Assembly (NCBI GenBank): GCA_016201795.1
Contig: JACQCF010000010.1
Span: 15,095-79,094, forward strand
Reading direction: 5' to 3'
DNA: 64,000 nt
From: Candidatus Omnitrophota bacterium
Lineage (GTDB): Bacteria > Omnitrophota > Gorgyraeia > Zapsychrales > Fredricksoniimonadaceae
The translations under genes and the position numbers were made by a program. Each line of letters begins with the position of its first letter. Within the stretch, counting starts at the first letter, position 1. The notes under the pieces are model-generated. The model did no database searches. It was not told the origin of the DNA and saw nothing but the letters and a program-made list of their open reading frames with translations. Below, one piece after another: positions 40,450 through 63,452 of the stretch.

Positions 40450-42993
<2,544 letters not shown>

Positions 42994-46322: not shown

Positions 46323-47113
46323 AGGTTGCGCTCATTCAGTTTAATGCCGGGGCTAATAAAAGTGATAATATCCGACGGGCCCTGGAGTTTGTGAAGGAGG
46401 CCGCCGCGCATCAGGCCCAGTGGATTCTTCTGCCGGAGATTTTTAACTTCCGCGGCGATATCCGCCGCAAAGAAGTCCTGCGGCAAATCCGCGAACCTAT
46501 TCCAGGCCCGACGACTCAAACGTTTTTGGATTTTGCATGCCACCACCACGTGGATCTCTTATTGGGCTCACTGCTAGAACAAGCCCCGGGGGATAAAGCG
46601 TATAATACGTCGGTCGCCATCAGCGGCTCCTTGGGAAAGATGGTCAAATATCGCAAAATTCACTTATTCGACGCTATCCTCGGTGATAAGATCATACGCG
46701 AGTCGGATTTTCTGGTTAAAGGAGGCCGGCTGCAAACAGTTTCCGTCGGTGAATTTCGGGCGGCTTTAAGCGTCTGTTACGATTTAAGATTTCCTGATCT
46801 TTATCAAAGCTATGCGCGGCAAAAAGCCACGGTGTTAAGTGTGCCGTCGTGTTTTACCAAACAAACCGGTCAAGCCCATTGGGAAAGTCTGTTAAGGGCC
46901 CGGGCGATTGAAAATTTATGTTACGTGTTGGCCCCCGCCCAGGTCGGCAAAGACGATCGGGGCATGGAAGCTTACGGCCACAGCATGATCATAAGCCCTT
47001 GGGGGGACGTGATGGCCTGCGGCTCGTCGGACAAAGAAGAAATCATTGATGGCGAAATTTCGCTCGAGGCTGTTCAAGAAGCGCGGGCCAAATTGCCAGG
47101 AATTGTTAAATAG
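46319..47113 (+). CDS. Carbon-nitrogen hydrolase (nitrilase superfamily)
   Basis: MKVALIQFNAGANKSDN... with the catalytic triad context E (LPEIF), K (YRKIHLF) and C (SVCYDLRFP). The ATG overlaps the GST stop (ATGA). Confidence 0.85.
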   Translation: MKVALIQFNAGANKSDNIRRALEFVKEAAAHQAQWILLPEIFNFRGDIRRKEVLRQIREPIPGPTTQTFLDFACHHHVDLLLGSLLEQAPGDKAYNTSVAISGSLGKMVKYRKIHLFDAILGDKIIRESDFLVKGGRLQTVSVGEFRAALSVCYDLRFPDLYQSYARQKATVLSVPSCFTKQTGQAHWESLLRARAIENLCYVLAPAQVGKDDRGMEAYGHSMIISPWGDVMACGSSDKEEIIDGEISLEAVQEARAKLPGIVK

Positions 47114-47118
47114 ATAAA

Positions 47119-47217
47119 TTCCCCTCCCCTTGTGGGAGGGGCTAGGGGAGGGGATACAGATGAGAATTATCCTCAGTGTTACCCCCACCCTAACCCTCCC
47201 CACAAAGGGGGAGGGAA
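47119..47217 (+). repeat. MITE-like G-rich palindromic element, copy A (GGGAGGGG family)
   Basis: Left end TTCCCCTCCCCTTGTGGGAGGGGCTAGGGGAGGGGA, a 25-nt spacer, then right end CCCCCACCCTAACCCTCCCCACAAAGGGGGAGGGAA. Each end is itself a hairpin and a G-quadruplex-type G-run array. It lies just 5' of mdh. Confidence 0.7.
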
Positions 47218-47234
47218 TAAATCAAGGAATGAGT

Positions 47235-48215
47235 ATGCCAAAGCGTATTAAAGTCGCAGTGACTGGTGCCGCCGGACACATCGGCTATGCTTTGGTGTTT
47301 CGCATAGCCGCCAGTGAAATGTTTGGGCCAGACACGGCCATTGACTTAAAACTTTTGGAATTGGAAAAAGCTTTGCCGGTTTTGGGTGGGGTGGCGATGG
47401 AGCTGGAGGACTGCGCGTTTCCTTTGCTAAAGTCGGTGGCCATAACCGCTGATGCCACCCTAGCTTTTAAAGAGGCGGATTGGGCTTTGCTTATCGGCAG
47501 CGTGCCGCGCAAAGAGGGCATGGAACGCGGCGATCTTTTGAAAATCAACGGGGGAGTTTTCATCGAACAGGGCAAGGCGCTCTCGAAACATGCCAAAGGG
47601 ACTTGCAAAATCCTGGTGGTGGGCAACCCCTGCAACACCAATGCTTTTATCGCTAAAAGTGTTTGCCAGAATATTCCAGCCAGAAACTTTTTTGCCATGA
47701 CCATGCTGGACCACCACCGCGCCACGGCGCAACTGGCGCAAAAAGCCGGAGTTTCCGTCGCTGATGTCAAAAGAGTGGCCATTTGGGGCAACCATTCCGC
47801 CACCTTGTATCCGGATTTTTATAATGCCACGATAGGCGGCCGTCCGGTTGCGGAGGTCATCAAGGATTTGAATTGGTTGCAGACGACATTTATGGAAGGC
47901 GTACAGAAGCGCGGGGCCGCCGTCCTCAAGGCGCGTGGGCTTTCATCAGCCGCCTCGGCCGCTCATGCGATTATTGATACCGTGCGCGCCATCAGCAGGC
48001 CTACCCCGGCAGGAGAGACTTTTTCGGCAGCCGTTTCTTCCGATGGCAGTTATGATATTCCCGAAGGCGTCATGTTTGGTTTTCCTTTGCAAAGCGATGG
48101 CCAGAACTGGAAAATTGCGGACGGCTTTAAGCACAATGATTTTGCCAAAGCCAGGATGAAAGCGACCCTGGATGAGCTTTTAAGCGAACAAGAGGCGGTC
48201 AAAATTTATCTATAG
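47235..48215 (+). CDS. mdh: Malate dehydrogenase (NAD-dependent, LDH-like family)
   Basis: [24 protein letters not shown]... Rossmann GxGxxG. The ORF track starts upstream at 47130, reading through the repeat; start is trimmed to the ATG after the SD-like AAGGAA. Confidence 0.88.
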
Positions 48216-48276
48216 TCATTTGCATTTGGATAATTTAACGGGTATACTTAACCTATACTTATTTTTGGAGGACTAG

Positions 48277-49245
48277 ATGGACTACTTTTACCGAAGGATT
48301 TTGATAGGGGGGCTGGTGTGTATCACCGCAGCCACTGTATCTGGCTGTGATCTATTCTCTACTGGTAAAAAAACAGCTAAGAAGCCTTCCTCAGATGCCA
48401 CCAGTACAATCGTGACAACTCCAAGCTCCAATGAAACCGCAGACAGTCAGGGGTCCTTACCTGCCAATGTCCTTGCTCGCGTCGGCAATTGGACATTGAC
48501 CCTGGAGGAATTTAATCAACGGCTTAAACTGCTTAAACAAGGATTTCCGGATTTTAATGAAAACGACCCCCAAGCCAAAGCCGCCGTGCTCAATGAGCTG
48601 ATACGCCAGCAATTGTTGGTTAAAGATGCCGAGAATTCCGATATTGCTGATAAAAAAGATATTAAAGACGCGGTGGAAGATTTCCGTCGCACGCTGCTGG
48701 TGCGGGAGCTGGCCAATCGTATCACCAAAGATTTGAAAGTCACCGAAGAAGAAGCCCAAAAATATTATGATCAGAACAAAGACAAAGACCCTGTCTTGAT
48801 GGAACCTCTTCGATGGAAGGTGCGCGAGATAGTGGTTGACGATGAGGCCGCGGCCAAGAATATCTTAGTCCAACTATTGCAGGGCGCTGATTTTGCCGAA
48901 ACCGCCAAAGCGCAATCTAAAGGTAAAACTGCCTCCCAAGGGGGAGCTTTACCGGAGTTTACCAAAGCGCCTTTTGAAGCTATGCAAAAAGCCATTGCTT
49001 CAGTGGATGCCGGCGGTACCAGCGGCGTATTTAAAGCTCCTGACGGGTTTTATATTGTGCGCGTGGAGGAGAAAAAAGGCGGCAGCCCCAAAGTTTTTGG
49101 GGGTATTAAAGGGGATTTAATCATAGGACTGACGCAGCTCAAACAGCAGAGCGTCCTATTAGAGTACATCGATAAGTTAGCCCAAAAAACCAAAGTGGAA
49201 ATTAACAGACAGCTCTGGGGGGCCGTCGATCACAAAGGGCCCTAA
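48277..49245 (+). CDS. Parvulin-type peptidyl-prolyl isomerase lipoprotein (SurA/PrsA-like)
   Basis: 322 aa with lipobox VSGCD, a SurA_N-like chaperone region and a PpiC domain (GGALPEF...GVFKAPDGFYIVRVEE). Confidence 0.8.
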   Translation: MDYFYRRILIGGLVCITAATVSGCDLFSTGKKTAKKPSSDATSTIVTTPSSNETADSQGSLPANVLARVGNWTLTLEEFNQRLKLLKQGFPDFNENDPQAKAAVLNELIRQQLLVKDAENSDIADKKDIKDAVEDFRRTLLVRELANRITKDLKVTEEEAQKYYDQNKDKDPVLMEPLRWKVREIVVDDEAAAKNILVQLLQGADFAETAKAQSKGKTASQGGALPEFTKAPFEAMQKAIASVDAGGTSGVFKAPDGFYIVRVEEKKGGSPKVFGGIKGDLIIGLTQLKQQSVLLEYIDKLAQKTKVEINRQLWGAVDHKGP

Positions 49246-49259
49246 GAGGAGGCAAGCTC

Positions 49260-50099
49260 ATGGCTATGGAAAATAAAAAACAGATCTTTTTGATCATATT
49301 TGCGGTGGTCGCCGGTATTGCGGCGACGCTATTAACCAGCAATTATGTGATCAGAACAATAGAACAGAAGACGCAGGAACTTTCTGACCAGTATGACCAA
49401 AAGCAAAAACAGATGGCGGCGGAATTGCAGCAGCAAAGCCAGCAGCAGGTGGCTGCTTTGCGTGAGGAGATTGGCCGCATCAGCCAGCAGCAGCAGGAGA
49501 CTTTGCAAAAAGCCAACGCCGCGATGCAGGCTGGGCAGCAGGGCGCGGCCATGGGGAAGCAAAGAGCCAGACGCGCCACTACCCTGTTAACCATGAAAAC
49601 ACCTGCCGGCAAACGCGCGGTGACGGTGATGATTGATTCTTTAGCCGCGGTGGGCGGGCTTTTAAACCCGGGCGATTTCGTGGATGTGATGGCGCATTTG
49701 AACGTGCCTGAAGAAGCAAGCTCTGATAAGAAAAAGACTCTTACGGCGATGGTTTTTCAAGATTTGCAGGTGCTGGCGATCAACACTAATTTGGAGGATG
49801 CCGGGGCTTACGATGAGCAGCAGGCTGCGGGGTCTTTAAAGGTAACCTTTGCGGTGGACCCGCAAGAAGCGGGGCTTTTGGCTTTTGCCGATAAAAACGG
49901 CAAGCTGGAGCTGGCTCTGCGGGCTACCAATGAAAACGATAAACAGATGGTCAAGGCCTCCACCTGGAAGACGCTGGCGGATTATGTGCTGCAGAATCAG
50001 GGTTCCGCCATCGATGTCCCCGAAGAAGGAATGCCCAAAACCGGAACAAAAGAAGGAAAGCCCTACATTCAGATTTTTAGAGGAGGTAAGGAGCTCTAA
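49260..50099 (+). CDS. cpaB: Flp pilus assembly protein CpaB/RcpC with inserted Gln-rich coiled coil
   Basis: 279 aa with an N-terminal TM, a ~70-aa Q-rich segment, then the RcpC/CpaB C-domain (AVTVMIDSLAAVGGLLNPGDFVDVMAHL...LQVLAIN...VTFAVDPQEAGLLAFA). Confidence 0.75.
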   Translation: MAMENKKQIFLIIFAVVAGIAATLLTSNYVIRTIEQKTQELSDQYDQKQKQMAAELQQQSQQQVAALREEIGRISQQQQETLQKANAAMQAGQQGAAMGKQRARRATTLLTMKTPAGKRAVTVMIDSLAAVGGLLNPGDFVDVMAHLNVPEEASSDKKKTLTAMVFQDLQVLAINTNLEDAGAYDEQQAAGSLKVTFAVDPQEAGLLAFADKNGKLELALRATNENDKQMVKASTWKTLADYVLQNQGSAIDVPEEGMPKTGTKEGKPYIQIFRGGKEL

Positions 50100-50102
50100 T
50101 CC

Positions 50103-51878
50103 ATGAGAATATTTCTGTTAAAAATTTTAGTGGTGGGGGCCATGACAGCCTTTTTTGCCGGCACGGCCTCGTCGGATGAAGGGGATAATGCCCCCAAGGC
50201 CCCGGAGGTGATTGAACTTGTCACCGGGGATGTGCAGACGGTTGAAACTAAAAATTTAAGCAGGGTTTCGGTGGCCAACCCGGACGTTGCGGATATTTCC
50301 GATGCGCAGCCCAATAAAGTACTTGTCGTCGGCAAAAAGGCGGGACAGACGGAGGTGTCTATCTGGGATGACAACGGCAAGAAGAGCGTCATCGTGCGGG
50401 TGGCCGGCGAAAATCTTGACTCCCTTAAAACCCGCCTGGAGGCGATTATCAATAAAACCGGTATCAAAGGAATATCTCTGGATAAAAGTGCGTATGAAGG
50501 CAAAGTCGTTTTATCAGGCTCCGTTTATAAAGAGGACAAGGACGTTCTGGATAAAGTGACGGATCCTTTTAGCGACAGGATCATCAATTTAGTTAAAAAA
50601 GAAGTCAGTGAAGATTTGGTGCAGATTGATATGCAGGTCACCGAATTGAGCACGACATTAACCAAAAGTATTGGTATAGACTGGAACAGAGGGGGCGCCA
50701 GTGGCGCCACGACGGGTGCGACGGGCGTCAGTACTACTAGCGGTACGCCGTTTTTGAATTTGGATTACAAGGAAACATTACCGAGCACTAACGGTAAACC
50801 GGAAGATTTCTTTAAAATAGGTGATTTTAACCGTACCAGTTCGATTTTAGCCACCGTCAATGCCCTGCTGCAAGAAGGCAAAGGCCGTATTCTTTCCAAA
50901 CCGCGTCTGGTGGTTTTAAGCGGCAAGGAAGCCAGCTTCTTAGTCGGCGGTGAAATCCCTGTTGTCACGACAACGACCACTGGCGGCGGTGCCGGAACGA
51001 CAACGTCCAATGTGTCGTTTAAACAATACGGGGTGAATATGACGATCACCCCGACGGTGCGCGATGGCAAAATCGATATTCTGCTCAATGTACAAATCAG
51101 CGACATTGACCGCGCCAACAAGGTAGGCAATGATGTGGCTTTCATCACCCGTTCAGCGCAGACCCAATTATTTTTGGATAACAGTCAGACGATTGTGTTG
51201 GCGGGATTGATTAAACATGCCGACGGGCAAACCATCAAGGGGATTCCTTTTTTAAGTAAAATACCGGTGGTGGGGATGTTCTTTAGGACCCGTCAGAATG
51301 GAGCGCCTGATTCAGATACTGAGCTGGTGATTTCCTTAACACCGACGATCCTTAAATCCAAGAAGATGGCCACCGAGCAGGTGGTTTTGCCCACCAAACG
51401 CATGGATAGTTTCGCCAAGGAAATCGAAAGCAATTTTGAGAAAGAACCGCTTAATCCCCCCCTGGAGAAAAAGCTCCCCATGGCCCCGCCGGCCAAGGGC
51501 GCTTCCCAGCCGATGATGATAAAACCCATCTCCCAGGTGCCGGATATCATCGTGTCCTTGTATGTGCGTTCCATTCAGCTAAGAATTTCTCAGGCCGTTT
51601 CTTATCCGTATGAGGCCCTGCAGAAGAATTGGCAGGGCGCAGTGAAACTGCGGCTGCGTATTCTCAAAGACGGCACCCTGGCAGATGCGGATGTGCTGGA
51701 ATCTTCCGGCCATGATGTATTTGACAAAGACGCTCTTAATACCGCCAAAACCGCGGCTCCGTTCGCGCCGTTTCCCAAAGAGATGAAGGGGGAAGATATC
51801 GTGGTGACGGTCCCCATTGTTTATAACCAGCACACCGCTTCCCAAAATGATACACAAACCGTAGTCGCTGCTTACTAA
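50103..51878 (+). CDS. cpaC: Tad secretin CpaC/RcpA fused to a C-terminal TonB-C-like domain
   Basis: 591 aa with a signal peptide and a secretin core (...LSKPRLVVLSGKEASFLVGGEIPV...GIPFLSKIPVVGMFFR...). A linker is followed by a ~90-aa segment matching the TonB C-terminal domain pattern (YPYEALQKNWQGAVKLRLRILKDGTLADADVLESSGHDVFDKDALNTAKTAAPFAPFPKE). Confidence 0.8.
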   Translation: MRIFLLKILVVGAMTAFFAGTASSDEGDNAPKAPEVIELVTGDVQTVETKNLSRVSVANPDVADISDAQPNKVLVVGKKAGQTEVSIWDDNGKKSVIVRVAGENLDSLKTRLEAIINKTGIKGISLDKSAYEGKVVLSGSVYKEDKDVLDKVTDPFSDRIINLVKKEVSEDLVQIDMQVTELSTTLTKSIGIDWNRGGASGATTGATGVSTTSGTPFLNLDYKETLPSTNGKPEDFFKIGDFNRTSSILATVNALLQEGKGRILSKPRLVVLSGKEASFLVGGEIPVVTTTTTGGGAGTTTSNVSFKQYGVNMTITPTVRDGKIDILLNVQISDIDRANKVGNDVAFITRSAQTQLFLDNSQTIVLAGLIKHADGQTIKGIPFLSKIPVVGMFFRTRQNGAPDSDTELVISLTPTILKSKKMATEQVVLPTKRMDSFAKEIESNFEKEPLNPPLEKKLPMAPPAKGASQPMMIKPISQVPDIIVSLYVRSIQLRISQAVSYPYEALQKNWQGAVKLRLRILKDGTLADADVLESSGHDVFDKDALNTAKTAAPFAPFPKEMKGEDIVVTVPIVYNQHTASQNDTQTVVAAY

Positions 51879-51965
51879 ACACAATCCGAACTACGTTTTT
51901 TAATTGACAAACCACCAATCATGGACTATACTCCATATTAGTTGAACTATTGTGGATGTATAAAC

Positions 51966-53117
51966 ATGAACAAAAATATCCAAAGACTACTAAAGATAAA
52001 ACTCCCCAGGGGCCAATCCGCCTTTCTTTGGGGGCCCCGTAAAACGGGGAAATCCACATTTTTACGTCAACATTTCCCCAAGAGCATTATCTACGATTTT
52101 CTAAACACAGATTTATACGTTGATTTAGTTAAAAAGCCTTCTTTGCTTCGTCAGCATCTCTCAGCCCTCAAGGTCAAGGGGCCTGTTATTCTAGACGAAG
52201 TTCAAAAAATTCCGGCTATTTTGGATGAAGTCCACTGGATGATAGAAAACATGAAGTTATCTTTTATTCTATGCGGATCATCCGCCAGAAAATTAAAACG
52301 CGGTCAGGCCAATTTATTAGGGGGAAGGGCATGGCGGTTTGAAATGTTCCCGTTAGTTTACCCGGAAATAGAGAATTTCAACTTGTTGCACGCATTAAAC
52401 AACGGTTTATTGCCGGCGCATTATTTGCAAAAAGATGCCTCCAAATCCCTCGATGGCTATGTCAAAGATTATTTGAAAGAAGAAGTCTTTGAAGAAGGTC
52501 TCACGCGCAACATCCCGGCTTTTTCAAGATTTTTTGATTCCATGTCTTTCGATCATGGTCAAATGGTCAATTTTACAAACATAGCCAGGGATTGTTCTGT
52601 TGATGTTAAAACAGTCCAGCAATATTACCAGATCTTAGTGGATACGTTTTTGGGTTCATTTGTCGAACCTTATAAAAGAAAACAGGACCGGGCAATTATT
52701 TCACGAACACAAAAGTTTTATCTGTTTGACGTTGGAGTAGCAGGAGCAATAACCCGCAGACATATTGCCCAGGAAGCAGGAGAAGAATTTGGCAAAGCTT
52801 TTGAACATTTTATATTTACTCAGTTGGTAGCCTATAACAGTTATAAGCAGAAAAATATAAGAATCAATTATTGGCGTACTAAATCCGGATTAGAAGTGGA
52901 TTTTATACTAGGTAAGGGCGAGGTCGCTATAGAGGTCAAAGGAGCGAGCAGGGTCGATTTCACGGACATCAAAGGCTTGAGGGCTTTTTATGAAGAGCAT
53001 AGGCCTAAGAAGGCGATCGTTGTTACTAATGAAAGGGTTTCAAGAATTGAAAGGGGGATTCGTTTTTTGCCATGGGGGGAGTTCCTATCTTTGCTCTGGC
53101 GGGGAGATCTTATTTAG
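51966..53117 (+). CDS. AAA ATPase with DUF4143-type C-terminal domain
   Basis: MNKNIQRLL...GPRKTGKSTFLRQ (Walker A), ...ILDEVQ (Walker B). A strong sigma70-like promoter sits upstream: TTGACA (51905-51910), 16 nt, TATACT (51927-51932). The ORF track starts at TTG 51942. Confidence 0.7.
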   Translation: MNKNIQRLLKIKLPRGQSAFLWGPRKTGKSTFLRQHFPKSIIYDFLNTDLYVDLVKKPSLLRQHLSALKVKGPVILDEVQKIPAILDEVHWMIENMKLSFILCGSSARKLKRGQANLLGGRAWRFEMFPLVYPEIENFNLLHALNNGLLPAHYLQKDASKSLDGYVKDYLKEEVFEEGLTRNIPAFSRFFDSMSFDHGQMVNFTNIARDCSVDVKTVQQYYQILVDTFLGSFVEPYKRKQDRAIISRTQKFYLFDVGVAGAITRRHIAQEAGEEFGKAFEHFIFTQLVAYNSYKQKNIRINYWRTKSGLEVDFILGKGEVAIEVKGASRVDFTDIKGLRAFYEEHRPKKAIVVTNERVSRIERGIRFLPWGEFLSLLWRGDLI

Positions 53118-53220
53118 AACAAATTATAAAAGGACTTTAGCCAAGAGCTCATAAATTCAGGTAATGACAAAATAAAAAACCGTGGTACAATATCCCAATT
53201 GACCACGGTTTTTAGTTCCT

Positions 53221-55380
53221 ATGTCCTGCAAAATCATCACAATCTTCAGTAATAAAGGCGGGGTTGGCAAAACCTTCGTCGCTGTTAACACGGCCGCGGC
53301 GCTGGCGCTCAAAGGCAAAAAAGTTTTAGTGGTTGATTTTGACCTTCAGGCCGGCCAGAACATGGCCCGTATGTTCAATCTCACCCCTGCCCATTCTCTG
53401 GTGGACATCCTCTCGGCCATGGAAAGCGACGAGAAAAGCTATATCGTTAAGAAATTCGCCGCGCCTCATTCCAGCGGCCTGGACTTTTTACCGGCGGTCA
53501 ATCACGTCCGCCAGGGCGGCCATATTACTCCCGATAACATACGTCCCTTTTTCAAAAGAGCGGCAGCTCTTTATGATTATATCATCATTGACGCGGACAG
53601 ATCCTTTAGCGAGACGCTCATTAGCGTTTTGGATAACACCAATTTAATTTTATTGGTGACCACTCCCGATATTCTGGCGGTGTATCAGGCCAAAAGCGGC
53701 CTGGAGATTTTACAGAGCCTGCATTTTCCTTTAAAAATGTCCAAATTGATTTTGAACCGGGCCGAAAGCCGCGGCGGGGTGGCCTGGCAGGAAGTGCAGT
53801 CGGTTGTAGCCTGCGATATGTTCGCTCTTGTTCCTTCCGACGGGAAAACCGTTGGCCTGGCCTTAAACCGCGGTATTCCCTGCGTCATTGACAGTCCCCG
53901 GACGCGCGTTTCCGAGGTTTTCTTCGAATTGGCGGACAAACTGCAGGCGGAGGATATCTATGTGCATTCCTCCGACGTGGTTAAAGTGCGTACCGTGGAA
54001 GGCCTGAGCTCCAAAGGCAATGAATTTTGGGAAAAATTCGGCATTGCGCCCGGAGGGTCCTCACCGATGGAGGTGACCTATAAGAAGGAAGAAGACGAGG
54101 TCATTAAATTAAAAAAAGTCATTCACCAGAAGCTGGTGGAGCGCATGAACCTTAAAAAGATCTCCCCACAAGTCTTCACCGATACGCAACAGGCGGCCAA
54201 TATGCGCAAAGCCGCGGAAAAGTTGGTCACGGAACTTTTGGCCGAAACCTCGGGAACCATTATTGCTTCCCACGAGGAACGCTCCCGGCTGGTGCGCGAA
54301 ATTGTCAATGAAGCGCTGGGCTTAGGTCCGCTGGAAGATCTGTTGGTGGATGAGGATATTTCCGATATCATGGTCAACAACAAAGACGAAATTTTCATCG
54401 AGAAAAACGGTAAAATCATTTTGACCAACAAGCGTTTTATTTCCAATGAACAGGTGCGCGCCACCATTGACCGCATCATCGCCCCTTTGGGGCGCCGCGT
54501 GGACGAATCGACCCCGATGGTGGATGCCCGCCTGCCCGACGGCTCGCGTATTAACGCCATTATCCCGCCGCTGGCCTTAAACGGTCCGATGATTACCATC
54601 CGCAAATTCTCTCAGGAGCGTTACACCATGGAGGATTTGCTCACTAAATTCAAAAGTATTTCCCAGCCCATGGCGGACTTTTTAGACGCCTGCGTGATTG
54701 GTCGCAAGAATATGATCATCTCCGGCGGGACCGGCGCAGGCAAGACCACGCTTTTAAATATTGTGTCACATTTTATCCCCGACAATGAACGCATCATCAC
54801 CATTGAGGATGCGGCGGAGCTGCGTTTGAGCAAAGTGCATTGGGCCCGCCTGGAATCGCGCCCGTCTAACGTGGAAGGCAAGGGCCATATTGCCATTCGG
54901 GATCTTTTTATCAACACGCTGCGTATGCGCCCGGATCGTATCATCATCGGCGAGTGCCGCGGCCCGGAAGTTTTGGATATGATGCAGGCGATGAACACCG
55001 GCCACGACGGCTCGCTGACCACCTTGCACGCCAACACCACCCGGGACGTCCTGGCGCGTTTATCGTCGATGGTTTTGCTCTCCGGCATTGAGCTTCCCAT
55101 CCGTGCTATTTATGAAATGGTGGCCTCCTCCATCAATATCATCGTGCAAATTTCCAGGTTTTCCGACGGTTCGCGCAAAATTACGGCCATTTCCGAGCTC
55201 ACCGGCAAAATGGTCGAGGGCCTGCCAGAGATGAAAGATGTTTTTGTCTTCAAGCACAGGGGCATCAATACCGAGGGGGTTGTTTTAGGAGAGTACGTGG
55301 CCACTGGCTTTGTGCCCAAATGCTACGACGATTTTATGACGCGGGGAATTCCGCTCAGCAAAACGATTTTTAATCCGTGA
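53221..55380 (+). CDS. TadZ/CpaE-like MinD-family ATPase fused to TadA/CpaF secretion ATPase
   Basis: 719 aa. The N-terminal ~270 aa is a ParA/MinD-type P-loop (SNKGGVGKTFVAVNTAAALA). The C-terminal ~400 aa is a CpaF/TadA type II/IV secretion NTPase (GGTGAGKTTLLN Walker A, IIIGECRGPE, GHDGSLTTLHAN). Confidence 0.8.
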   Translation: MSCKIITIFSNKGGVGKTFVAVNTAAALALKGKKVLVVDFDLQAGQNMARMFNLTPAHSLVDILSAMESDEKSYIVKKFAAPHSSGLDFLPAVNHVRQGGHITPDNIRPFFKRAAALYDYIIIDADRSFSETLISVLDNTNLILLVTTPDILAVYQAKSGLEILQSLHFPLKMSKLILNRAESRGGVAWQEVQSVVACDMFALVPSDGKTVGLALNRGIPCVIDSPRTRVSEVFFELADKLQAEDIYVHSSDVVKVRTVEGLSSKGNEFWEKFGIAPGGSSPMEVTYKKEEDEVIKLKKVIHQKLVERMNLKKISPQVFTDTQQAANMRKAAEKLVTELLAETSGTIIASHEERSRLVREIVNEALGLGPLEDLLVDEDISDIMVNNKDEIFIEKNGKIILTNKRFISNEQVRATIDRIIAPLGRRVDESTPMVDARLPDGSRINAIIPPLALNGPMITIRKFSQERYTMEDLLTKFKSISQPMADFLDACVIGRKNMIISGGTGAGKTTLLNIVSHFIPDNERIITIEDAAELRLSKVHWARLESRPSNVEGKGHIAIRDLFINTLRMRPDRIIIGECRGPEVLDMMQAMNTGHDGSLTTLHANTTRDVLARLSSMVLLSGIELPIRAIYEMVASSINIIVQISRFSDGSRKITAISELTGKMVEGLPEMKDVFVFKHRGINTEGVVLGEYVATGFVPKCYDDFMTRGIPLSKTIFNP

Positions 55381-55715
55381 TCAAAAATCTTACCCGACAG
55401 ACCATTCTGGCGACCTGCGTCGAAATCGCTCATACGCCTTTGAAACGGATGCGGGGTCTGGTCGGCCGTTTGTTCCTCAAACCAACCGAGGCTTTGGTCA
55501 TTGCCCCTTGCCAGAGCATTCATATGCTGTTTATGAAATTTCCCATCGACGTCATTTTTCTCGACGATAAAAATAAAGTCATAGGCCAAAGGGCGCGCAT
55601 CAAGCCTTTTCAATTCTCGGCGATTTTTTGGAAATCTGCTTGCGCCATCGAATTGCCGGCTGGTACAATTGAGCTAACCCATACACAACTTGGCGATCAA
55701 ATACAAATTTCTTAA
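55377..55715 (+). CDS. DUF192 domain protein
   Basis: 112 aa ...MRGLVGR...LVIAPCQSIHMLFMKFPIDVIFLD... has a DUF192/COG1430-like pattern. Confidence 0.55.
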   Translation: MIKNLTRQTILATCVEIAHTPLKRMRGLVGRLFLKPTEALVIAPCQSIHMLFMKFPIDVIFLDDKNKVIGQRARIKPFQFSAIFWKSACAIELPAGTIELTHTQLGDQIQIS

Positions 55716-55768
55716 TGCTAGATTATTGCTGCCTGAAAAATGCTATAATTGGAATGGAGGTGAATCCT

Positions 55769-55972
55769 ATGAAAACACAAGCTCATGAACCAATCACCAT
55801 TGATGAACCCATGGTTTTGGTTCCAGCCGAAGAGTATGATTTATTGATTAAAGAGGCCGGTTATAGACCGACCCCCCATCTCAGTCGGCAAATCAAGAAA
55901 GCTAAAGAGAATTTCCGTAAGGGAAAGTCTTTACCGTGGAGAAAAGTAAGGGATGAGCTCTTATCACGTTGA
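55769..55972 (+). CDS. Type II antitoxin (Phd/RelB-like)
   Basis: 67 aa MKTQAHEPITIDEPMVLVPAEEYDLLIKEAGY..., preceded by TATAAT (55744-55749) and GGAGG. Overlaps the downstream toxin gene. Confidence 0.6.
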   Translation: MKTQAHEPITIDEPMVLVPAEEYDLLIKEAGYRPTPHLSRQIKKAKENFRKGKSLPWRKVRDELLSR

Positions 55973-56216
55973 TATTGACCCTGCCGCTCGTCGTGACCTT
56001 AAGAAATTCAAACGCAATTTTTCTTTATTGCGAATCTTTATTTCCTTGATTGATGGTCTTGCAACATCTCCTTTTGAAGGCAAGCCATTGGCAGGCGATA
56101 AGAAGGGATGCTATTCCCTGCGGCATCAGGATTATCGGATTATTTACACCATTTATCCCGAGTCTAAAACAGTGCTTGTTATCAGTATTGGTCATCGTTG
56201 GGAAGTTTATCGTTAA
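55953..56216 (+). CDS. Type II toxin RelE/ParE family
   Basis: 87 aa ...YSLRHQDYRIIYTIYPESKTVLVISIGHR. Confidence 0.75.
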   Translation: MSSYHVDIDPAARRDLKKFKRNFSLLRIFISLIDGLATSPFEGKPLAGDKKGCYSLRHQDYRIIYTIYPESKTVLVISIGHRWEVYR

Positions 56217-56224
56217 GGTATGCC

Positions 56225-57700
56225 ATGGGAGTCGTCTACAAACTAACTCCGGAGATCAGCTCCTTTATCATCGAGCAAAAAAAGAGCAACCCGCAATTGA
56301 CCTGTCAACACTTAGCGGGGCTGGTGCTGTCGCGTTTTGGCCAGCCGCTTTCCAAATCCTCGGTGCATGAGCTTTTAAAACAGTCGCATACCATCACCCC
56401 CCGCCTGCACAAGCTTAAGAATAAATTTCAAATTCCGCCGCAGAAAAAGGCGCAGATTTTTCCGACAATCCTGGCGATGCCTGCCTCGCCGGCAGGCGGG
56501 CCTGCGCCAGATCCCCCACCGGCTCCCACCATTGAGCCTGTAGCCATGCAACAAGTTCCTCTGCAGAAACCGCCTCAACCGCTCACGCAGGGCCAAGTCC
56601 AACAACGCATGGGCGAGATTTTCCTCAAGGCCGCCTTCTGGGATCTGTCCTTTAAGCCCATTTTGGGCTTAAAGGATTTTGATGATATTAATGGTTCGAC
56701 GGGCTCACCATTAGATAAAAATAGTTTAAGATTAGAATGGGAATCCTTAACCAAGCCAGTTGAGGCGATCAAAGTAGAGTTAGAAGACAGCCATTGTTTT
56801 TACATCGACTGCCGCTTTCAAGGTTTATACGCGGATAATCCTCAAAAGGAATTTTTGGCCGCGCCTCTTGAGCGTTCTGCCGGGGAAATGCCGGATTACG
56901 TGCTTAATAATATTCAACCTTTGATCATTAGGGAATTTAATACAACTGATTCAATTACAACAGTTTATGATCTCATAGCGGCTTTTGAGAACTTACCGGG
57001 TAAGGCTATTACTAAAATTTCCCTTATAGGAGCTCAAAATCAAATTTTAACTGAATTTAGCTTGCCTCGCCGGCAGGCGGGCCTGCCTGTCGGTTTGCCT
57101 TTGGCTTATAAACGTCATTTTATCTTGGGAATATCTTCTAACTGTGAGGAATTTCAATGGGTTATGAAAGACCAAAAGCCGGAAAATCCCTGGCTAACGC
57201 CCCTCAAAGACAAAAAAGGTCAACCAATTGCCCTAAGAATCCTTAAAAAAGGTGGTAATATTATCATAACTAATTTATTATCATATAGTTATGATAATAT
57301 TATAAAGCTCTATCTGAACCGGCATCCTCAAAGCTTGTCATTCCCGAATGTTTCTATCGGGAATCTAGTAGTTGCCAATACTGGATCCCCGACTAAAACT
57401 TTCGGGGATGACACACTGACTAACCAATCCCAATGGCTCAAAAACCGTCTCAAGGAGCGCGCTCTGATGCTTTTCCCGTTGGATTTACCCCCGGCGGCCT
57501 TAGAGGAGATTTTAGCCCTGCCAGGCTTTGAGGCGTCTCATGAAAAAATGCTTCAGGTACACTTGAATGTGCCGGATCAGTTTCCCTATATTCAAAGTGT
57601 GCAGGCCGCCGCCGCATGCGTGAATAGTTTAGATATTACAGACCCCAAGGGCCGGAAAATCGATGTTCAAGTGGATGTTACGCATGTAGAGAGATTTTGA
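56225..57700 (+). CDS. Hypothetical protein with N-terminal HTH-like region, Pro-rich linker and internal 28-bp direct repeat
   Basis: ~490 aa with no TM. N-terminus ...ISSFIIEQKKSNPQLTCQHLAGLVLSRFGQPLSKSSVHELLKQ, then a P/A/Q-rich linker. The DNA repeat gcCTGCCTCGCCGGCAGGCGGGCCTGC occurs at 56476-56503 and 57061-57088. Confidence 0.5.
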   Translation: MGVVYKLTPEISSFIIEQKKSNPQLTCQHLAGLVLSRFGQPLSKSSVHELLKQSHTITPRLHKLKNKFQIPPQKKAQIFPTILAMPASPAGGPAPDPPPAPTIEPVAMQQVPLQKPPQPLTQGQVQQRMGEIFLKAAFWDLSFKPILGLKDFDDINGSTGSPLDKNSLRLEWESLTKPVEAIKVELEDSHCFYIDCRFQGLYADNPQKEFLAAPLERSAGEMPDYVLNNIQPLIIREFNTTDSITTVYDLIAAFENLPGKAITKISLIGAQNQILTEFSLPRRQAGLPVGLPLAYKRHFILGISSNCEEFQWVMKDQKPENPWLTPLKDKKGQPIALRILKKGGNIIITNLLSYSYDNIIKLYLNRHPQSLSFPNVSIGNLVVANTGSPTKTFGDDTLTNQSQWLKNRLKERALMLFPLDLPPAALEEILALPGFEASHEKMLQVHLNVPDQFPYIQSVQAAAACVNSLDITDPKGRKIDVQVDVTHVERF

Positions 57701-57706
57701 TACGAT

Positions 57707-57804
57707 TTCCCCTCCCCTGGTGGGAGGGGTAAGGGGAGGGGGATCGACGGAGATCATCGTTTTTATGCCCCCGCCCTAACCCTCCCCACAAAGGGGGAGG
57801 GAAT
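57707..57804 (+). repeat. MITE-like G-rich palindromic element, copy B
   Basis: TTTCCCCTCCCCTGGTGGGAGGGGTAAGGGGAGGGGGA...GCCCCCGCCCTAACCCTCCCCACAAAGGGGGAGGGAAT, lying 160 bp upstream of the first flp gene. Confidence 0.7.
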
Positions 57805-57964
57805 CCAAATTTTTATACAGGCGAGGTTGACATCGGGTATTTTATATGGCATACTTTATTTACGATAATGAGATGGATGTCAAAGACGTATTTAAAGTCT
57901 CCGAAAGAGACTTTTATTATAGACGGGCATAATCGTCTTCACGAAACAACCATAGGTGAACCCA

Positions 57965-58120
57965 ATGGGTCGCTTCAAAAATGTAAAAGCTCAAAACTTA
58001 ATCGAATACGCGATCGTGTTGGGTTTAGTCTCGGCAGCCATCGCTGCCATGAGCACCTATGTGTTTCGTTCAATACAGGCCGCCCAGAAGACGGTTGATC
58101 AGGAATTCGGCGCACAATAA
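57965..58120 (+). CDS. flp: Flp-family type IVb pilin (canonical short form, 51 aa)
   Basis: Absent from the ORF track because it is under 60 aa. MGRFKNVKAQNLIEYAIVLGLVSAAIAAMSTYVFRSIQAAQKTVDQEFGAQ has the Flp processing motif (xxxxEY) followed by a hydrophobic helix. Confidence 0.7.
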   Translation: MGRFKNVKAQNLIEYAIVLGLVSAAIAAMSTYVFRSIQAAQKTVDQEFGAQ

Positions 58121-58146
58121 CGTTCTTACAACAGGAGACATAATCT

Positions 58147-58428
58147 ATGTTTAGAAATATAAATGGTTCGAAGGGCTCGCCACGAGATAAACTCGGGCAG
58201 AGCACCGTAGAGTACATCATTCTGGTAACCGCTGTGATTGCGGTGGTGATTCTGTTTGTCGCCAATCCAGGTACCGGATTTCAAAAGAAGGTTAACAGCA
58301 CGTTGGAGACAGCAACTCAAGGGATGGAGGATAAAGGGGCTTTTTTGAGTACTTCGCATAATACAGCCCCTGGGAATTCCGACTTGCCGCAGATAAACGT
58401 TGACATAACGAGCAATCTGCTACCTTAG
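58147..58428 (+). CDS. Flp-type pilin paralogue with C-terminal extension
   Basis: 93 aa; leader ...KLG/QSTVEYIILVTAVIAVVILFV. Confidence 0.7.
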   Translation: MFRNINGSKGSPRDKLGQSTVEYIILVTAVIAVVILFVANPGTGFQKKVNSTLETATQGMEDKGAFLSTSHNTAPGNSDLPQINVDITSNLLP

Positions 58429-58479
58429 TTACTTTAAGAAAAGTTCCTTAATAACCTTAAGGAAAATTTAGGAGGATAT

Positions 58480-58842
58480 ATGTTAAGACAGTTATTCAAA
58501 AATAAAAACGGACAGAACACCGCCGAATACGCGTTGTTGATTGCCCTGGTTGTTGCAGGCATTGTGGCCATGCAAACCTATGCCCAGCGGTCCTTACAGG
58601 CGCGGGTGCGCGATGCTTCGCAGTATTTGACAACCACGACCAACACCATAGGTAATTCGGTGCAGTATGAGCCTTATTATTTGCAAACCAATTACGAGGT
58701 CACACGTGACAGCGGCAGTAATCAAAGGTTGAGCAAAGGCACCACAGCCGCGGATTCTTTCACCAATCGCGAACGTGCGAAAGGCGGCTCTCAAGTGTCG
58801 ACGTATAATACGTCTGTAAATGGTTTGACTAATGGACTTTAA
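58480..58842 (+). CDS. Flp-type pilin paralogue, extended (QYEPYY subgroup)
   Basis: 120 aa; MLRQLFKNKNG/QNTAEYALLIALVVAGIVA..., with the QYEPYY motif shared with the 59560 paralogue. Confidence 0.7.
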   Translation: MLRQLFKNKNGQNTAEYALLIALVVAGIVAMQTYAQRSLQARVRDASQYLTTTTNTIGNSVQYEPYYLQTNYEVTRDSGSNQRLSKGTTAADSFTNRERAKGGSQVSTYNTSVNGLTNGL

Positions 58843-58898
58843 GCTAAACACAACCCTGTGCCCTGGAGGGTACAGGATGATCATTTAAGGAGGAAGGT

Positions 58899-59231
58899 AT
58901 GATTGCTTATCTTAATCGTCACAGAGGACAAAGCACGCTCGAATATGCGGTGCTGATTATCATCATCATCGCGGCTTTGCTCTCCATTCAGATTTATATC
59001 AAACGCGGCGTGCAGGGCCGTTTAAAGAGCTCCGCCGATGATATCGGTGATCAGTTCTCGCCGGGCAATACCAATGTTCTTAAGGCGGAGAAGACCAAAA
59101 CTGTAGAAAGCCAACAGTTTGGTATCACCGGTCAAGGCGTGCAAAACAGCACCTTGCTTAATAAGGAAACAACTAACTCGGCCACACAATCGGTTGTTGT
59201 CAACAATGATCAGGAATACTGGGGACAATAA
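58899..59231 (+). CDS. Flp-type pilin paralogue, extended (IKRGxQGR subgroup)
   Basis: 110 aa; ...HRG/QSTLEYAVLIIIIIAALLSIQIYIKRGVQGRLKSSADDIGDQF. Confidence 0.7.
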   Translation: MIAYLNRHRGQSTLEYAVLIIIIIAALLSIQIYIKRGVQGRLKSSADDIGDQFSPGNTNVLKAEKTKTVESQQFGITGQGVQNSTLLNKETTNSATQSVVVNNDQEYWGQ

Positions 59232-59240
59232 CCAGTTCTT

Positions 59241-59342
59241 AGTAAATAGTAAATAGTAGATAGTAGATAGTTAATGGTGAGTGATTTTGGGACATGGTTC
59301 CTGAGGTCCTCACCATTTACTATTTACTATTCACCATTAACG
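59241..59342. repeat. Large palindromic element with tandem TAAATAG/TAGATAG heptads between pilin genes
   Basis: aGTAAATAGTAAATAGTAGATAGTAGATAGTTAATGGTGAGtgattttgggacatggttcctgaggtcCTCACCATTTACTATTTACTATTCACCATTAAC forms a ~40-bp imperfect stem. Confidence 0.65.
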
Positions 59343-59346
59343 GACC

Positions 59347-59547
59347 ATGAGGATTAGTATGAGTAAGAAAGGCCAGAGCACCATAGAGTACATTTTGTTG
59401 GTGACCGCGGTGGTGGCAGTGGTGATTTTTTTGACAACCGGACAGAATTCCATGTTTCAGCAAAGACTGGCCAATACCATTAATATCACCACCAACGGCA
59501 TGGAAACCATGGCCAATCGTCTCACCAATTCGGCGGTCGTGCCGTAA
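59347..59547 (+). CDS. Flp-type pilin paralogue
   Basis: 66 aa MRISMSKKG/QSTIEYILLVTAVVAVVIFL. Confidence 0.7.
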   Translation: MRISMSKKGQSTIEYILLVTAVVAVVIFLTTGQNSMFQQRLANTINITTNGMETMANRLTNSAVVP

Positions 59548-59559
59548 GGATGAAGGACT

Positions 59560-59982
59560 ATGGTCAAAGGACGCCGCCAGCAGGGGGTAACTTCTTTAGC
59601 CGAATACACCATGACGTTTTTTTTGGTGATCGCCGTGGTGGTGGCCATGACCACTTATATTCAGCGTTCCCTGCAGGCGCGTATACGCGATGCACGTCAT
59701 TACATGATTGCCGCCGTCAGCAATCAATGCGATGCCAATTGTATGAATGCCACAGGGTTAGCGGGCAGTAACACCATAGGAGAACAGTACGAGCCGTATT
59801 ATGCGGCAGTGAATGCGACGGTGAGTGCGGATAGCCTGGTTCGAAAAGGGCTTTTAGCACCAGGCGTTGGCAGTACGGGAATTTTTAGGGCGCAGACCAA
59901 CGAACAGAATCAAAGCGCCTCTGACAGCAACCAACTGCCGCCGGTCAATGCAGCGAATGATAAAGTATTGGGGGCGCAGTAA
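59560..59982 (+). CDS. Flp-type pilin paralogue, extended (QYEPYY subgroup)
   Basis: 140 aa MVKGRRQQG/VTSLAEYTMTFFLVIAVVVAM...GEQYEPYYAAVN. Confidence 0.65.
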   Translation: MVKGRRQQGVTSLAEYTMTFFLVIAVVVAMTTYIQRSLQARIRDARHYMIAAVSNQCDANCMNATGLAGSNTIGEQYEPYYAAVNATVSADSLVRKGLLAPGVGSTGIFRAQTNEQNQSASDSNQLPPVNAANDKVLGAQ

Positions 59983-60426
59983 ATGGTGAATAATAAACGT
60001 AGCAGAGTTTCCCCTCCCCTTGTGGGAGGGGTAAGGGGAGGGGAATTAAAAAGGCGCATCGTCTTGTTTCCCCCCACCCTGGCCCTCCCCACAAGGGGGA
60101 GGGAAAAAGAAGGCCAAACCGTTTTAGAGTACATTTTATTAATCGGCATTGTGACGATAGCGCTGGTGTACATGGGCACGGATATCAAGCGCGGTATCCA
60201 AAGCGTGATTAAAGTGACGGCTGATCAAATAGGCAATCAACAGCAGTCGGAGCAGGATTTTAGCGCCACTGGCGGATATCTGGTTAATTCAGCAAGTTCC
60301 GTCAAAGACATTAGCCACAGATCCGTGCAGGAAAGAATCGGCGTGGTGACAACGGCGAGCGATGATTTTATGCAGACGACGACCAACAGTCTGACCAATG
60401 CGGGCTTTACGCCGACGGGGAATTAA
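59983..60426 (+). CDS. Flp-type pilin paralogue with MITE copy C inserted in-frame in its leader peptide
   Basis: 147 aa. MVNNKRSRV is followed by 33 element-encoded codons, then KEG/QTVLEYILLIGIVTIALV. No alternative in-frame ATG, GTG or TTG start exists downstream of the element. Confidence 0.55.
   Translation: MVNNKRSRVSPPLVGGVRGGELKRRIVLFPPTLALPTRGREKEGQTVLEYILLIGIVTIALVYMGTDIKRGIQSVIKVTADQIGNQQQSEQDFSATGGYLVNSASSVKDISHRSVQERIGVVTTASDDFMQTTTNSLTNAGFTPTGN
60009..60105 (+). repeat. MITE-like G-rich palindromic element, copy C (inside the pilin ORF, ~99 bp)
   Basis: TTTCCCCTCCCCTTGTGGGAGGGGTAAGGGGAGGGGAATT...CCCCCCACCCTGGCCCTCCCCACAAGGGGGAGGGAAA. Confidence 0.7.
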
Positions 60427-60431
60427 GTAAA

Positions 60432-60585
60432 TTCCCCTCCCCTGGTGGGAGGGGTAAGGGGAGGGGAGATTGAAGATTTTAAGGTTTTGGAATCATGATG
60501 TGCCCAGGAATCGGGATGGGGTTTTACAAAAGATAGTTGATCGTTTGATTTCCCCCTCCCTAACCCTCCCCACAAGGGGGAGGGA
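60432..60585 (+). repeat. MITE-like G-rich palindromic element, copy D (long-spacer variant)
   Basis: Left end 60432-60468 and right end 60550-60585, with a ~85-nt spacer. The right end AGGGGGAGGGAAGG supplies an SD-like sequence 8 nt before the GTG at 60596. Confidence 0.7.
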
Positions 60586-60595
60586 AGGCCTGTTG

Positions 60596-60916
60596 GTGCG
60601 AGGCGTTAAAGGCCAGAGTTTTTTGGAATATTCCGTGCTGCTCATTATCATTCTGGCCGTATTTTTATCCATGCAGATGTACATCAAACGCGGCATTCAG
60701 GGCCGCTGGAAATCAGCGGTGGATGAATTCGGTGATCAATACGATCCGCGGGTGGCCAATTCCGCGGCCAGTTACACGTTACTGAGCAATTCCAGTACAC
60801 AGGTGACGGTTATTCCCGAAGCTAACGGCCAGGTGACCATGAGGCAGGACAGCACCAATGCGGTGGAGACCAAAGCGGGCAGCACCACGGTGGGGTCGGT
60901 TTCGGCTCAACCGTAA
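60596..60916 (+). CDS. Flp-type pilin paralogue (IKRGxQGR subgroup), probable GTG start
   Basis: VRGVKG/QSFLEYSVLLIIILAVFLSMQMYIKRGIQGRWKSAVDEFGDQY. The ORF track starts at TTG 60470, inside the repeat. Confidence 0.6.
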   Translation: MRGVKGQSFLEYSVLLIIILAVFLSMQMYIKRGIQGRWKSAVDEFGDQYDPRVANSAASYTLLSNSSTQVTVIPEANGQVTMRQDSTNAVETKAGSTTVGSVSAQP

Positions 60917-60921
60917 ATGGT

Positions 60922-60968
60922 GTCATTGCTTCGTCGTCCCGCCTTGGCGGGACTCCTCGCAATGACAC
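60922..60968. repeat. Palindromic repeat (GTCATTGC...GCAATGAC), short copy 5' of the large TadE-like gene
   Basis: GTCATTGCttcgtcGTCCCGCCttgGCGGGACtcctcGCAATGAC is a nested hairpin. The 60927-61006 stretch is duplicated at 63401-63480. Confidence 0.65.
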
Positions 60969-60977
60969 TTAATAGAT

Positions 60978-63347: not shown

Positions 63348-63442
63348 GTCATTGCGAAGAAGCGAAGCGACTGAAGCAATCTTTTTCAATGCTAACAAGA
63401 TTGCTTCGTCGTCCCGCCTTGGCGGGACTCCTCGCAATGACA
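63348..63442. repeat. Palindromic repeat (GTCATTGCGAAG...CTCGCAATGAC), full copy 5' of the TadG-like gene
   Basis: gtcattgcgaagaagcgaagcgactgaagcaatc-tttttcaatgctaacaa-gattgcttcgtcgtcccgccttggcgggactcctcgcaatgacac. Confidence 0.65.
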
Positions 63443-63452
63443 CTTAATAGAT

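Follow-up and report, generated by a model that had tools for sequence, protein, structure and literature searches.

Short palindromic repeats in an Omnitrophota tad/flp locus as probable derivatives of a DUF559 nuclease cassette

In a 64-kb stretch of a Candidatus Omnitrophota bacterium genome (contig JACQCF010000010.1, positions 15,095 to 79,094; "the window" denotes this full stretch), a short G-rich palindromic repeat is present in four copies, designated A to D. Copy A precedes a probable malate dehydrogenase gene, and copies B, C and D all lie within 2.9 kb, inside a single operon, a tad/flp locus with genes for CpaB, a secretin, a TadZ-TadA fusion, TadE-like proteins and about nine pilins of the Flp type (class III signal peptide) (Table 1). 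Here, we describe these repeats, their relationship to a larger element that carries a DUF559 nuclease gene, and the possible consequences of their presence for two of the pilin genes. Short derivatives without an intact open reading frame (ORF) are named shells.

Anatomy and predicted folding of the repeats

Searches of the window with a left-end 21-mer and a right-end 27-mer returned four matches each at no more than three mismatches, compared with none in 100 shuffles. The terminal inverted repeats of the four copies are 35-36 nt long, imperfect and 78-81% complementary. The initial annotation of this DNA had listed the same four copies, with repeats of ~37 bp; the last positions of copy B (57803, not 57804) and copy D (60586, not 60585) needed correction. 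Both ends are composite: the left end comprises a small hairpin, CCCCTCCCC-tkgt-GGGAGGGG, followed by the G-tract GGGGAGGGG, and the right end comprises a C-tract, the hairpin CCCTCCCC-acaa(a)-GGGGGAGGG and a final AA. The ends also show a conserved asymmetry (CCCC-T-CCCC versus CCC-T-CCCCC). The central segments, on the other hand, show no mutual relationship among the window copies. Copies A, B and D start 5-6 nt after an upstream stop codon and copy C 26 nt after one.

Table 1. Coordinates of the repeats and associated features in the window.
Feature	Position	Strand	Description
Copy A	47119-47217	+	99 nt, no ORF
Copy A hairpins	left 47121-47141, then G-tract; right 47194-47215	+	
Copy A surroundings			starts 5 nt past stop of ORF 46274-47113; ends 17 nt before probable malate dehydrogenase start 47235
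Copy B	57707-57803	+	97 nt, no ORF
Copy B surroundings			starts 6 nt past stop of ORF 56198-57700; ends 23 nt 5' of flp promoter -35 box
flp promoter	57827-57855	+	TTGACA-17-CATACT, extended -10 TG; conserved in L122
Flp-type pilin gene	59983-60426	+	copy C in leader region; G/QTVLEY cleavage motif from 60112
Copy C	60009-60105	+	97 nt; within pilin ORF 59983-60426
Copy D	60432-60586	+	155 nt; left inverted repeat 60432-60466, right 60551-60586
DUF559 remnant	60470-60547	+	start TTG-AAG joined in frame to last ~24-25 codons (ILRFWNHDVPRNRDGVLQKIVDRL)
GGGGGAGGGAAGG at right tip of copy D	60576-60588	+	9 nt between GGAGG and TTG 60593
Flp-type pilin gene	60593-60916	+	3' of copy D; leader LVRGVK / GQSFLEY

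When folded as a whole, each copy adopts one long hairpin (-60 to -66 kcal/mol, z -3.4 to -6.0). A known RNA family was considered and rejected, as Rfam gave only sub-threshold eukaryotic miRNA hairpin models (24-34 bits versus gathering thresholds of 58-120). As had been noticed at the outset, canonical four-tract G-quadruplex (G4) motifs (G3+N1-7) occur in every copy, on the plus strand at the left end and on the minus strand at the right end, and these eight motifs are all the canonical G4 motifs in the window. The G-tracts adjoin their complementary C-tracts, and in G4-aware folding the minimum-energy structure of all complete copies was the hairpin on both strands and never a quadruplex. 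For the left end alone, the hairpin reaches -22.2 kcal/mol, compared with -16.7 kcal/mol for the isolated G-core folded as a quadruplex. It is therefore predicted by these energy models that the hairpin out-competes the quadruplex.

The DUF559 cassette and its distribution

The approximately 58 extra nucleotides of copy D encode KILRFWNHDVPRNRDGVLQKIVDRL, a DUF559 remnant which the initial annotation had overlooked, while its description of the unit as a palindromic repeat was correct. This remnant aligns with profile positions 84-108 of 109 of Pfam PF04480 (E 0.0076), a score below the gathering threshold because only 25 residues are left, and with positions 87-125 of a custom subfamily hidden Markov model (E 1e-12). 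The same model detected no other DUF559 sequence and no intact gene in the window. The catalytic core (VDF ... E-x-DG-x-x-H) has been deleted from copy D, whose alignment with a complete element (L143) comprises the left 37 nt, the start codon (ATTGAAG), a deletion of about 250 bp and the last 111 nt at 87% nucleotide identity. In copies B and C, bases homologous to the final DUF559 codons persist just inside the right end, and copy C keeps about five codons' worth of the DUF559 3' end (CATCGTCTTGTTTCC). The remnants in B, C and D indicate that the short copies are internally deleted cassettes.

Elements of approximately 400 bp with a full DUF559 ORF exactly between such ends were found in metagenome-assembled genomes (MAGs) of Omnitrophota (L089) and Chlamydiae (L114). 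In addition, a gapped-pattern scan of metagenomes, in which the two ends were set 340-370 nt apart, identified 19 loci, 17 of which have a DUF559 ORF (one of them frameshifted) exactly between the ends; complete metagenome elements measure about 392-414 bp in total, mostly 400-403 bp. The complete cassette consists of the left end, a single gene for a DUF559 / Vsr-like PD-(D/E)XK nuclease of about 115 amino acids, and a right end which is an imperfect inverted repeat of the left. Since the start codon of complete elements lies only 2-8 nt past GGGGAGGGG, this G-tract appears to be the Shine-Dalgarno (SD) sequence of the DUF559 gene, and the ORF usually runs on through the right end to give a tail ending in ...SPSLTLPTRGRE. 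The DUF559 gene (PF04480, E 2e-36 to 4e-40) is the sole ORF of the parent element, in which no transposase domain was detected. Element lengths are bimodal, with one class of 78-155 nt and another of about 400 nt and none between, and the internally deleted shells are palindromes of 93-155 nt.

Based on these observations, it is likely (a probability of roughly three-quarters in our judgement) that the four repeats are gutted derivatives of a selfish DUF559 nuclease cassette of about 400 bp, copies A, B and C having lost the ORF and copy D retaining a remnant of it, and that two of them now serve pilin genes. The label "MITE-like", after miniature inverted-repeat transposable elements, was a fair one for small non-coding, inverted-repeat-bounded kin of a larger gene-carrying element, with the reservation that no target-site duplication is visible and that the partner gene encodes no known transposase.

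Intact relatives appear to be present on other contigs of the same Omnitrophota MAG. The pilin with copy C in its leader corresponds to NCBI MBI3601835.1 (HY209_02975, Candidatus Omnitrophica bacterium), and two intact DUF559 proteins, MBI3601594.1 and MBI3601970.1, bear the same organism name and accessions on either side of that of the pilin; their assignment to this MAG follows from this adjacency. They are encoded on contigs of 143.5 and 122.3 kb, match the full length of the Pfam profile (E 4e-40 and 2e-36), and contain end-derived peptides, namely VSPPLVGGVRGGG at the N-terminus and, for example, PPLPSPQGGG at the C-terminus.

The left-end 21-mer was also used to scan GTDB genomes, where it matched at least 120 stretches. 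Among the matches listed are MAGs of Alpha- and Deltaproteobacteria, Nitrospirota, Chloroflexota, Planctomycetota, Omnitrophota, WOR-3, Chlamydiae, Armatimonadota and others, and many of these matches have the same left-middle-right layout as in the window, over about 80-150 nt. The uniform orientation that had been remarked upon holds for the four copies here, all of which are on the plus strand, but not for other genomes, in which orientation relative to neighbouring genes is mixed. DUF559 genes bracketed by other variants of the ends were found in one deltaproteobacterial and one Paracoccaceae MAG, and L020 has a decayed copy. Complete genomes of several cultured bacteria contain a flanked DUF559 gene as well, namely those of Deinococcus proteolyticus (pDEIPR03), Sinorhizobium meliloti (pSymB), Azospirillum brasilense and Synechocystis sp. 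B12. DUF559 is the flanked gene in all of the more than 20 cases examined, and this pairing of gene and ends is seen again in six or more phyla, with differing end variants. Two architectures can be distinguished: a distal one (C-tract and hairpin, ORF, hairpin and G-tract) in Deinococcus and Synechocystis, and a proximal one in Sinorhizobium (L157), Azospirillum (L156) and Omnitrophota.

Both the gene and its ends show signs of selection. Among 13 distinct full-length ORFs, dN/dS is about 0.13, with synonymous sites saturated (median pS 0.75), which shows that the DUF559 ORF is under purifying selection. The ends of these elements are nearly identical, although the search pattern fixed part of each end. 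At the right end, the hairpin stem varies between lineages, and both arms were found to change together (CCCTCCCCC/GGGGGAGGG, CCCCTCCC/GGGAGGGG and CCCTCTCCC/GGGAGAGGG) in a genome set in whose ascertainment the right-end hairpins played no part, and this joint variation implies that the paired structure is conserved, beyond the sequence alone.

At the protein level, at least 7,966 homologs were detected at E <= 1e-10. The tail encoded by the right end is present in 103 of the 120 best homologs, and many of these 120 are on contigs shorter than 2 kb, as would be expected of repeats that break assemblies. The closest solved structure is 3HRL, an "endonuclease-like protein" of Neisseria gonorrhoeae with no assigned function (E 4e-23). 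In a survey of the PD-(D/E)XK superfamily, Vsr, DUF559 and DUF2726 were grouped with a group I intron homing endonuclease (PMC3424549). Two further candidates were tried and rejected: phage as a vector, for which only 10 matches were found among 2.9 million viral contigs, and a known defence system, for which only weak domain-level matches to large proteins such as DpdF and ProA were obtained.

Copies B, C and D in the tad/flp operon

A syntenic locus, L122, has the same gene order, intergenic spacers of 9-12 nt and a pilin about 58% identical, and no element was present in it at the positions that correspond to copies B, C and D. Copy B sits between a stop codon and the flp promoter, which is a host feature outside the element.

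Copy C is flanked by MVNNKRSR and KEGQTVLEY in the pilin ORF and is free of stops in the pilin frame. Two of the three frames of copy C lack stops, so the open pilin frame is statistically unremarkable. The initial annotation placed this copy in frame within the pilin leader: the ORF is indeed open across the repeat, but the start assigned by NCBI (P0001, 120 aa) is TTG 60064, which lies within copy C and inside the predicted structure and gives a 16-aa leader. The other candidate, ATG 59983, abuts the upstream stop codon (TAAATG) and gives a 43-aa leader, and this arrangement favours translational coupling and read-through of the hairpin. With either start, element-derived codons are predicted to enter the leader. 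None of seven pilin orthologs has an insert (7/7), their leaders being only 2-6 aa long, and the proposed resemblance to in-frame insertions of the Rickettsia palindromic element (RPE) and to Correia elements is thus upheld, as judged from sequence, by a repeat inside an ORF where the orthologs have none. Prepilin peptidase would presumably cut off the leader bearing copy C, in which case the mature pilin would be unaffected.

Only GTAAA separates the upstream stop codon from copy D. At the other end, the tip of the repeat lies close to TTG 60593, while the equivalent gene in L122 has an AAAGGAG of its own and no element; the repeat is therefore now the sole SD-like sequence for this pilin, and the comparison strongly indicates that the right end of copy D has replaced the native SD. 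This makes the idea of a mobile ribosome-binding module plausible for copy D. The more general suggestion that the 3' end of the element acts as an SD-like sequence does not extend to copy A, since the malate dehydrogenase gene downstream has its own SD (AAGGA, 6 nt before the ATG), nor to copy B, which ends about 150 nt before the first pilin gene. A further observation is that TTG 60470, with GGGGAGGGG as its SD, is in frame and stop-free through the right end into the pilin gene, and a prepilin longer by 46 aa is formally possible on this reading.

More generally, the shells sit in tiny intergenic spacers of the operon and are probably tolerated there because transcription passes through them, some of their frames are stop-free and a purine tract resembling an SD forms their end. 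Their long RNA hairpins may modulate mRNA stability or translation in the operon.

The window contains other repeats as well. A 22-nt GC-rich palindrome, GCCTGCCTCGCCGGCAGGCGGG, is found at 56479-56500 and 57059-57081 as inverted copies in ORF 56198-57700, with a third copy at 10631-10652. The former two are in frame in the 500-aa product, encoding ...PASPAGG... and ...LPRRQAGLP..., and the 437-aa ortholog of L122 is gapped exactly there; on this alignment, GCCTGCCTCGCCGGCAGGCGGG is a second case in this genome of small palindromes inserted in frame. A second palindromic family, with ends GTCATTGCGA...hairpin...CGAAGCAATC, is located at 60925-61003, 63400-63478, 63348-63385, 40477-40531 and 2630-2662, so that the flp array hosts at least two repeat families. 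The copies at 60925-61003 and 63400-63478 are 100% identical over 79 nt and extend into two TadE-like genes, of which they contain the first codons (MNKHKKGQA). In an alphaproteobacterial MAG (L019), a repeat of this type adjoins the G-rich element. A long AT-rich hairpin (59249-59341, -43 kcal/mol, z -6.3) separates the fourth and fifth flp genes, and its L122 equivalent is a terminator-like hairpin with a T-run; it may act as a conserved attenuator within the operon and so determine the stoichiometry of the pilins. In addition, two small overlapping ORFs of 85 and 87 aa (55715-56216), which resemble a toxin-antitoxin pair in size and arrangement, separate the DUF192 gene from the 500-aa gene; they are missing from L122, where these two genes are adjacent. 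A 391-aa ORF (51942-53117) lies between the secretin gene and tadZ/A.

Mode of spread and significance

The flanks of 41 elements contained no consistent direct duplication of a target site, and no consistent target sequence emerged either, so classical cut-and-paste transposition is not indicated. In the most likely scenario, the DUF559 nuclease would act on the hairpin ends, by a transposition-like route or a homing/gene-conversion cycle, and thereby spread the cassette and possibly its shells. One Desulfococcaceae MAG has five shells with a common centre and a common outer repeat, which suggests that a shell-containing unit was amplified there.

In some lineages, the flanks prolong the inverted repeat, and solo ends or modules also occur. 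In several lineages the core is nested in lineage-specific outer inverted repeats (GATAGTGTCAAAAG...CTTTTGACAGAAC, GTAAAAAGTC...GACTTTTTAC and GTTGAT...ATCAAC), as observed in the flanks of complete elements (L130, L131, L136, L138, L140, L142) and in L103, L107, L117, L119, L010, L023, L036 and L157; the core may target palindromes, or its true termini may lie further out. With regard to length, 19 of 27 short elements (L002-L127 and the window copies, the latter as listed in Table 1) are divisible by three (naive binomial p about 9e-5). This excess is largely due to two lengths that recur, 93 and 108; when each of the 14 distinct lengths is counted once, only 7 are multiples of three, and a mini-ORF was rejected as its cause because no consistent start codon was found.

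Several points weigh against a cassette origin as outlined above, or against parts of it. Apart from the missing target-site duplication and target sequence, we know of no transposase activity in a lone Vsr-like nuclease of 115 aa. The unrelated centres show no recent burst of one shell in the window; they are compatible with four independently decayed full-length insertions. The placement of the intact genes in the same MAG is based on accession adjacency. L122 is a distant relative (about 58% protein identity), so that the missing elements denote absence in a relative, with no demonstrated pre-insertion allele. Excision of the exact 97-nt core of copy C restores no in-frame start; with 99 nt removed instead, a plausible MVNNKRSRKEGQTVLEY results, which leaves the boundaries of the insertion ambiguous. 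Finally, the layout is not uniform: in L155 (D. proteolyticus, NC_015170.1, 120772-121113) and L154 (Synechocystis, CP101712.1, 35379-35846), the tract is distal to the ORF.

The best-surviving alternative, which we consider unlikely but worth keeping in view, is a variant of the cassette explanation that differs only in the mode of spread. According to it, shells are empty or emptied targets into which a free-standing DUF559 homing-endonuclease gene is copied by repair via the ends of about 35 bp, and gene loss regenerates the shells. Such a cycle would be in keeping with the homing endonuclease known in the Vsr/DUF559 clade (PMC3424549), to which the cargo protein also belongs, the two length classes, the extreme conservation of the ends despite saturated synonymous sites and the missing target-site duplication. 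However, the ORF 3'-end remnants in copies B, C and D mark them as deletion products and not as pristine targets, the arrival of shells at new loci with unrelated flanks would be unexplained, and 35-bp arms are short for recombinational repair. The homing endonuclease of that clade resides in a phage group I intron, whereas the genes considered here are free-standing, bracketed by hairpins and located at many unrelated chromosomal sites.

The repeats might instead be primarily RNA structures with a regulatory function for the host, retained in the flp operon by selection, such as mRNA stabilisers, RNase III sites or devices for translational coupling. We regard this as improbable, even though the hairpins are transcribed and very stable, copies B, C and D are clustered in one operon and copy D supplies an SD. 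Precedents exist, in that repetitive extragenic palindromic (REP) sequences and bacterial interspersed mosaic elements (BIMEs) of Escherichia coli and the rhizobial RIME are reportedly transcribed, and REP/BIME-type repeats are reported to affect transcription attenuation and mRNA stability (PMC3738161). The related flp operon in L122, however, is entirely without elements, the central parts are mutually unrelated, the repeats derive from a gene-carrying element, and orientation is mixed elsewhere. Regulatory effects are therefore likely to be secondary.

Quite improbable is the possibility that the repeats are REP-type elements, or REPINs (inverted REP pairs), moved by another enzyme, for example a RAYT (REP-associated tyrosine transposase) or IS200-like tyrosine transposase, with DUF559 as a mere passenger or preferred neighbour. 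The likeness is considerable: small hairpin modules occur singly, in inverted pairs with a short spacer and in arrays, like REP, REPIN and BIME; inverted modules also bracket one small gene which presumably acts on them; they are extragenic and transcribed through; and the missing target-site duplication, shared with REP and REPIN, would fit single-strand HUH-type transposition. Nevertheless, DUF559, and not a Y1 HUH transposase, is the sole gene between the ends in every complete element examined, with no other ORF within the units of about 400 bp (RAYT genes were not sought systematically), and this association holds across phyla with different end variants. The modules consist of polypurine/polypyrimidine stems with a G- or C-tract and have no GTAG-type head, and a nearly identical module is shared by many phyla, whereas REP sequences are lineage-specific. 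REP sequences containing GGGAGGGG in RAYT and REPIN papers were examined and proved to be unrelated palindromes.

The least tenable proposal, that the elements are G4 recombination hotspots driving pilin variation as at Neisseria pilE, draws on G4 motifs beside clustered flp paralogs and on a G4 motif upstream of the expressed pilin in Neisseria, a system that also involves a G4-associated sRNA promoter and RecA-dependent gene conversion. We consider it very improbable, as the hairpin is predicted to win here, the element also precedes malate dehydrogenase and occurs in unrelated contexts in many phyla, and an orthologous flp array works without it. Each flp paralog, moreover, is a complete gene with a start of its own; the paralogs are divergent, sharing little past the N-terminal class III signal region except one 113-nt stretch at 72% identity, and the array has no silent cassettes like the donor cassettes of Neisseria. 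The Neisseria analogy is thus unsupported beyond the motif itself.

The cassette and its shells may also be compared with other repeat systems. Like miniature inverted-repeat transposable elements, the window copies are short (97-155 nt, compared with less than about 600 bp), non-coding, multicopy and mostly intergenic, and their terminal inverted repeats are common to a longer gene-carrying element, copy D being a literal internal-deletion intermediate. They differ in that no target-site duplication is present, each end is itself a hairpin, no burst of an identical shell is seen in the window, and the parent gene encodes a PD-(D/E)XK nuclease and no DDE or other known transposase. RPE and Correia elements are likewise palindromes of about 100-150 nt which occur inside reading frames (RPE) or provide expression signals and RNA hairpins (Correia), comparable to copies C and D. 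Neither has a sequence relationship to the window element; Correia elements have their own TA duplication, a site for integration host factor and no known cognate gene, and RPE insert in mature parts of proteins, whereas copy C lies in a leader that would be cleaved.

The genome of S. meliloti contains hundreds of intergenic palindromes that are transcribed and whose origin is not known (PMC3738161, PMC2573895). The DUF559 gene of pSymB is flanked by CCCTCTCCCCG-nnnn-CGGGGAGAGGG hairpins within a composite inverted repeat of at least 100 nt, with two hairpins per side. A possible kinship of these hairpins to RIME, Sm-repeats or motifs A/B/C is a lead only.

In the literature searched, coverage of which was incomplete, no account was found of this element or of DUF559 genes as cargo of hairpin-bounded repeats, and a phylogenetically very broad cassette around a Vsr-like nuclease has apparently remained undescribed. 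By analogy with RAYT/REPIN, DUF559 nucleases and G/C-rich hairpin-plus-tract modules may form a pan-bacterial selfish system in which the nuclease, in place of an HUH or DDE transposase, recognises the ends and spreads itself and the shells, an idea we put forward tentatively.

There are practical implications too. Shells create spurious or extended ORFs, with Pro/Gly/Arg-rich peptides such as PPLVGGVRGG and LTLPTRGRE as protein heads or tails, and probably break assemblies. They can also rewire expression signals within operons, as copies C and D appear to have done for two Flp pilins, and the operon described here contains both a deletion intermediate (copy D) and two apparent co-option events. 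The cultured hosts of flanked DUF559 genes (Deinococcus, Sinorhizobium and Azospirillum) make experiments feasible.

DUF559 is a very large family, and to our knowledge its small stand-alone members have no established role. The finding of DUF559 as the cargo of conserved cassettes that shed MITE-like shells offers a testable hypothesis for this role and a parent for widespread orphan palindromes. If the pan-bacterial system proves to be real, many of the intergenic palindromes now regarded as orphans, perhaps with the rhizobial RIME and Sm families among them, would be relics of it, and the large DUF559 family would gain a function.

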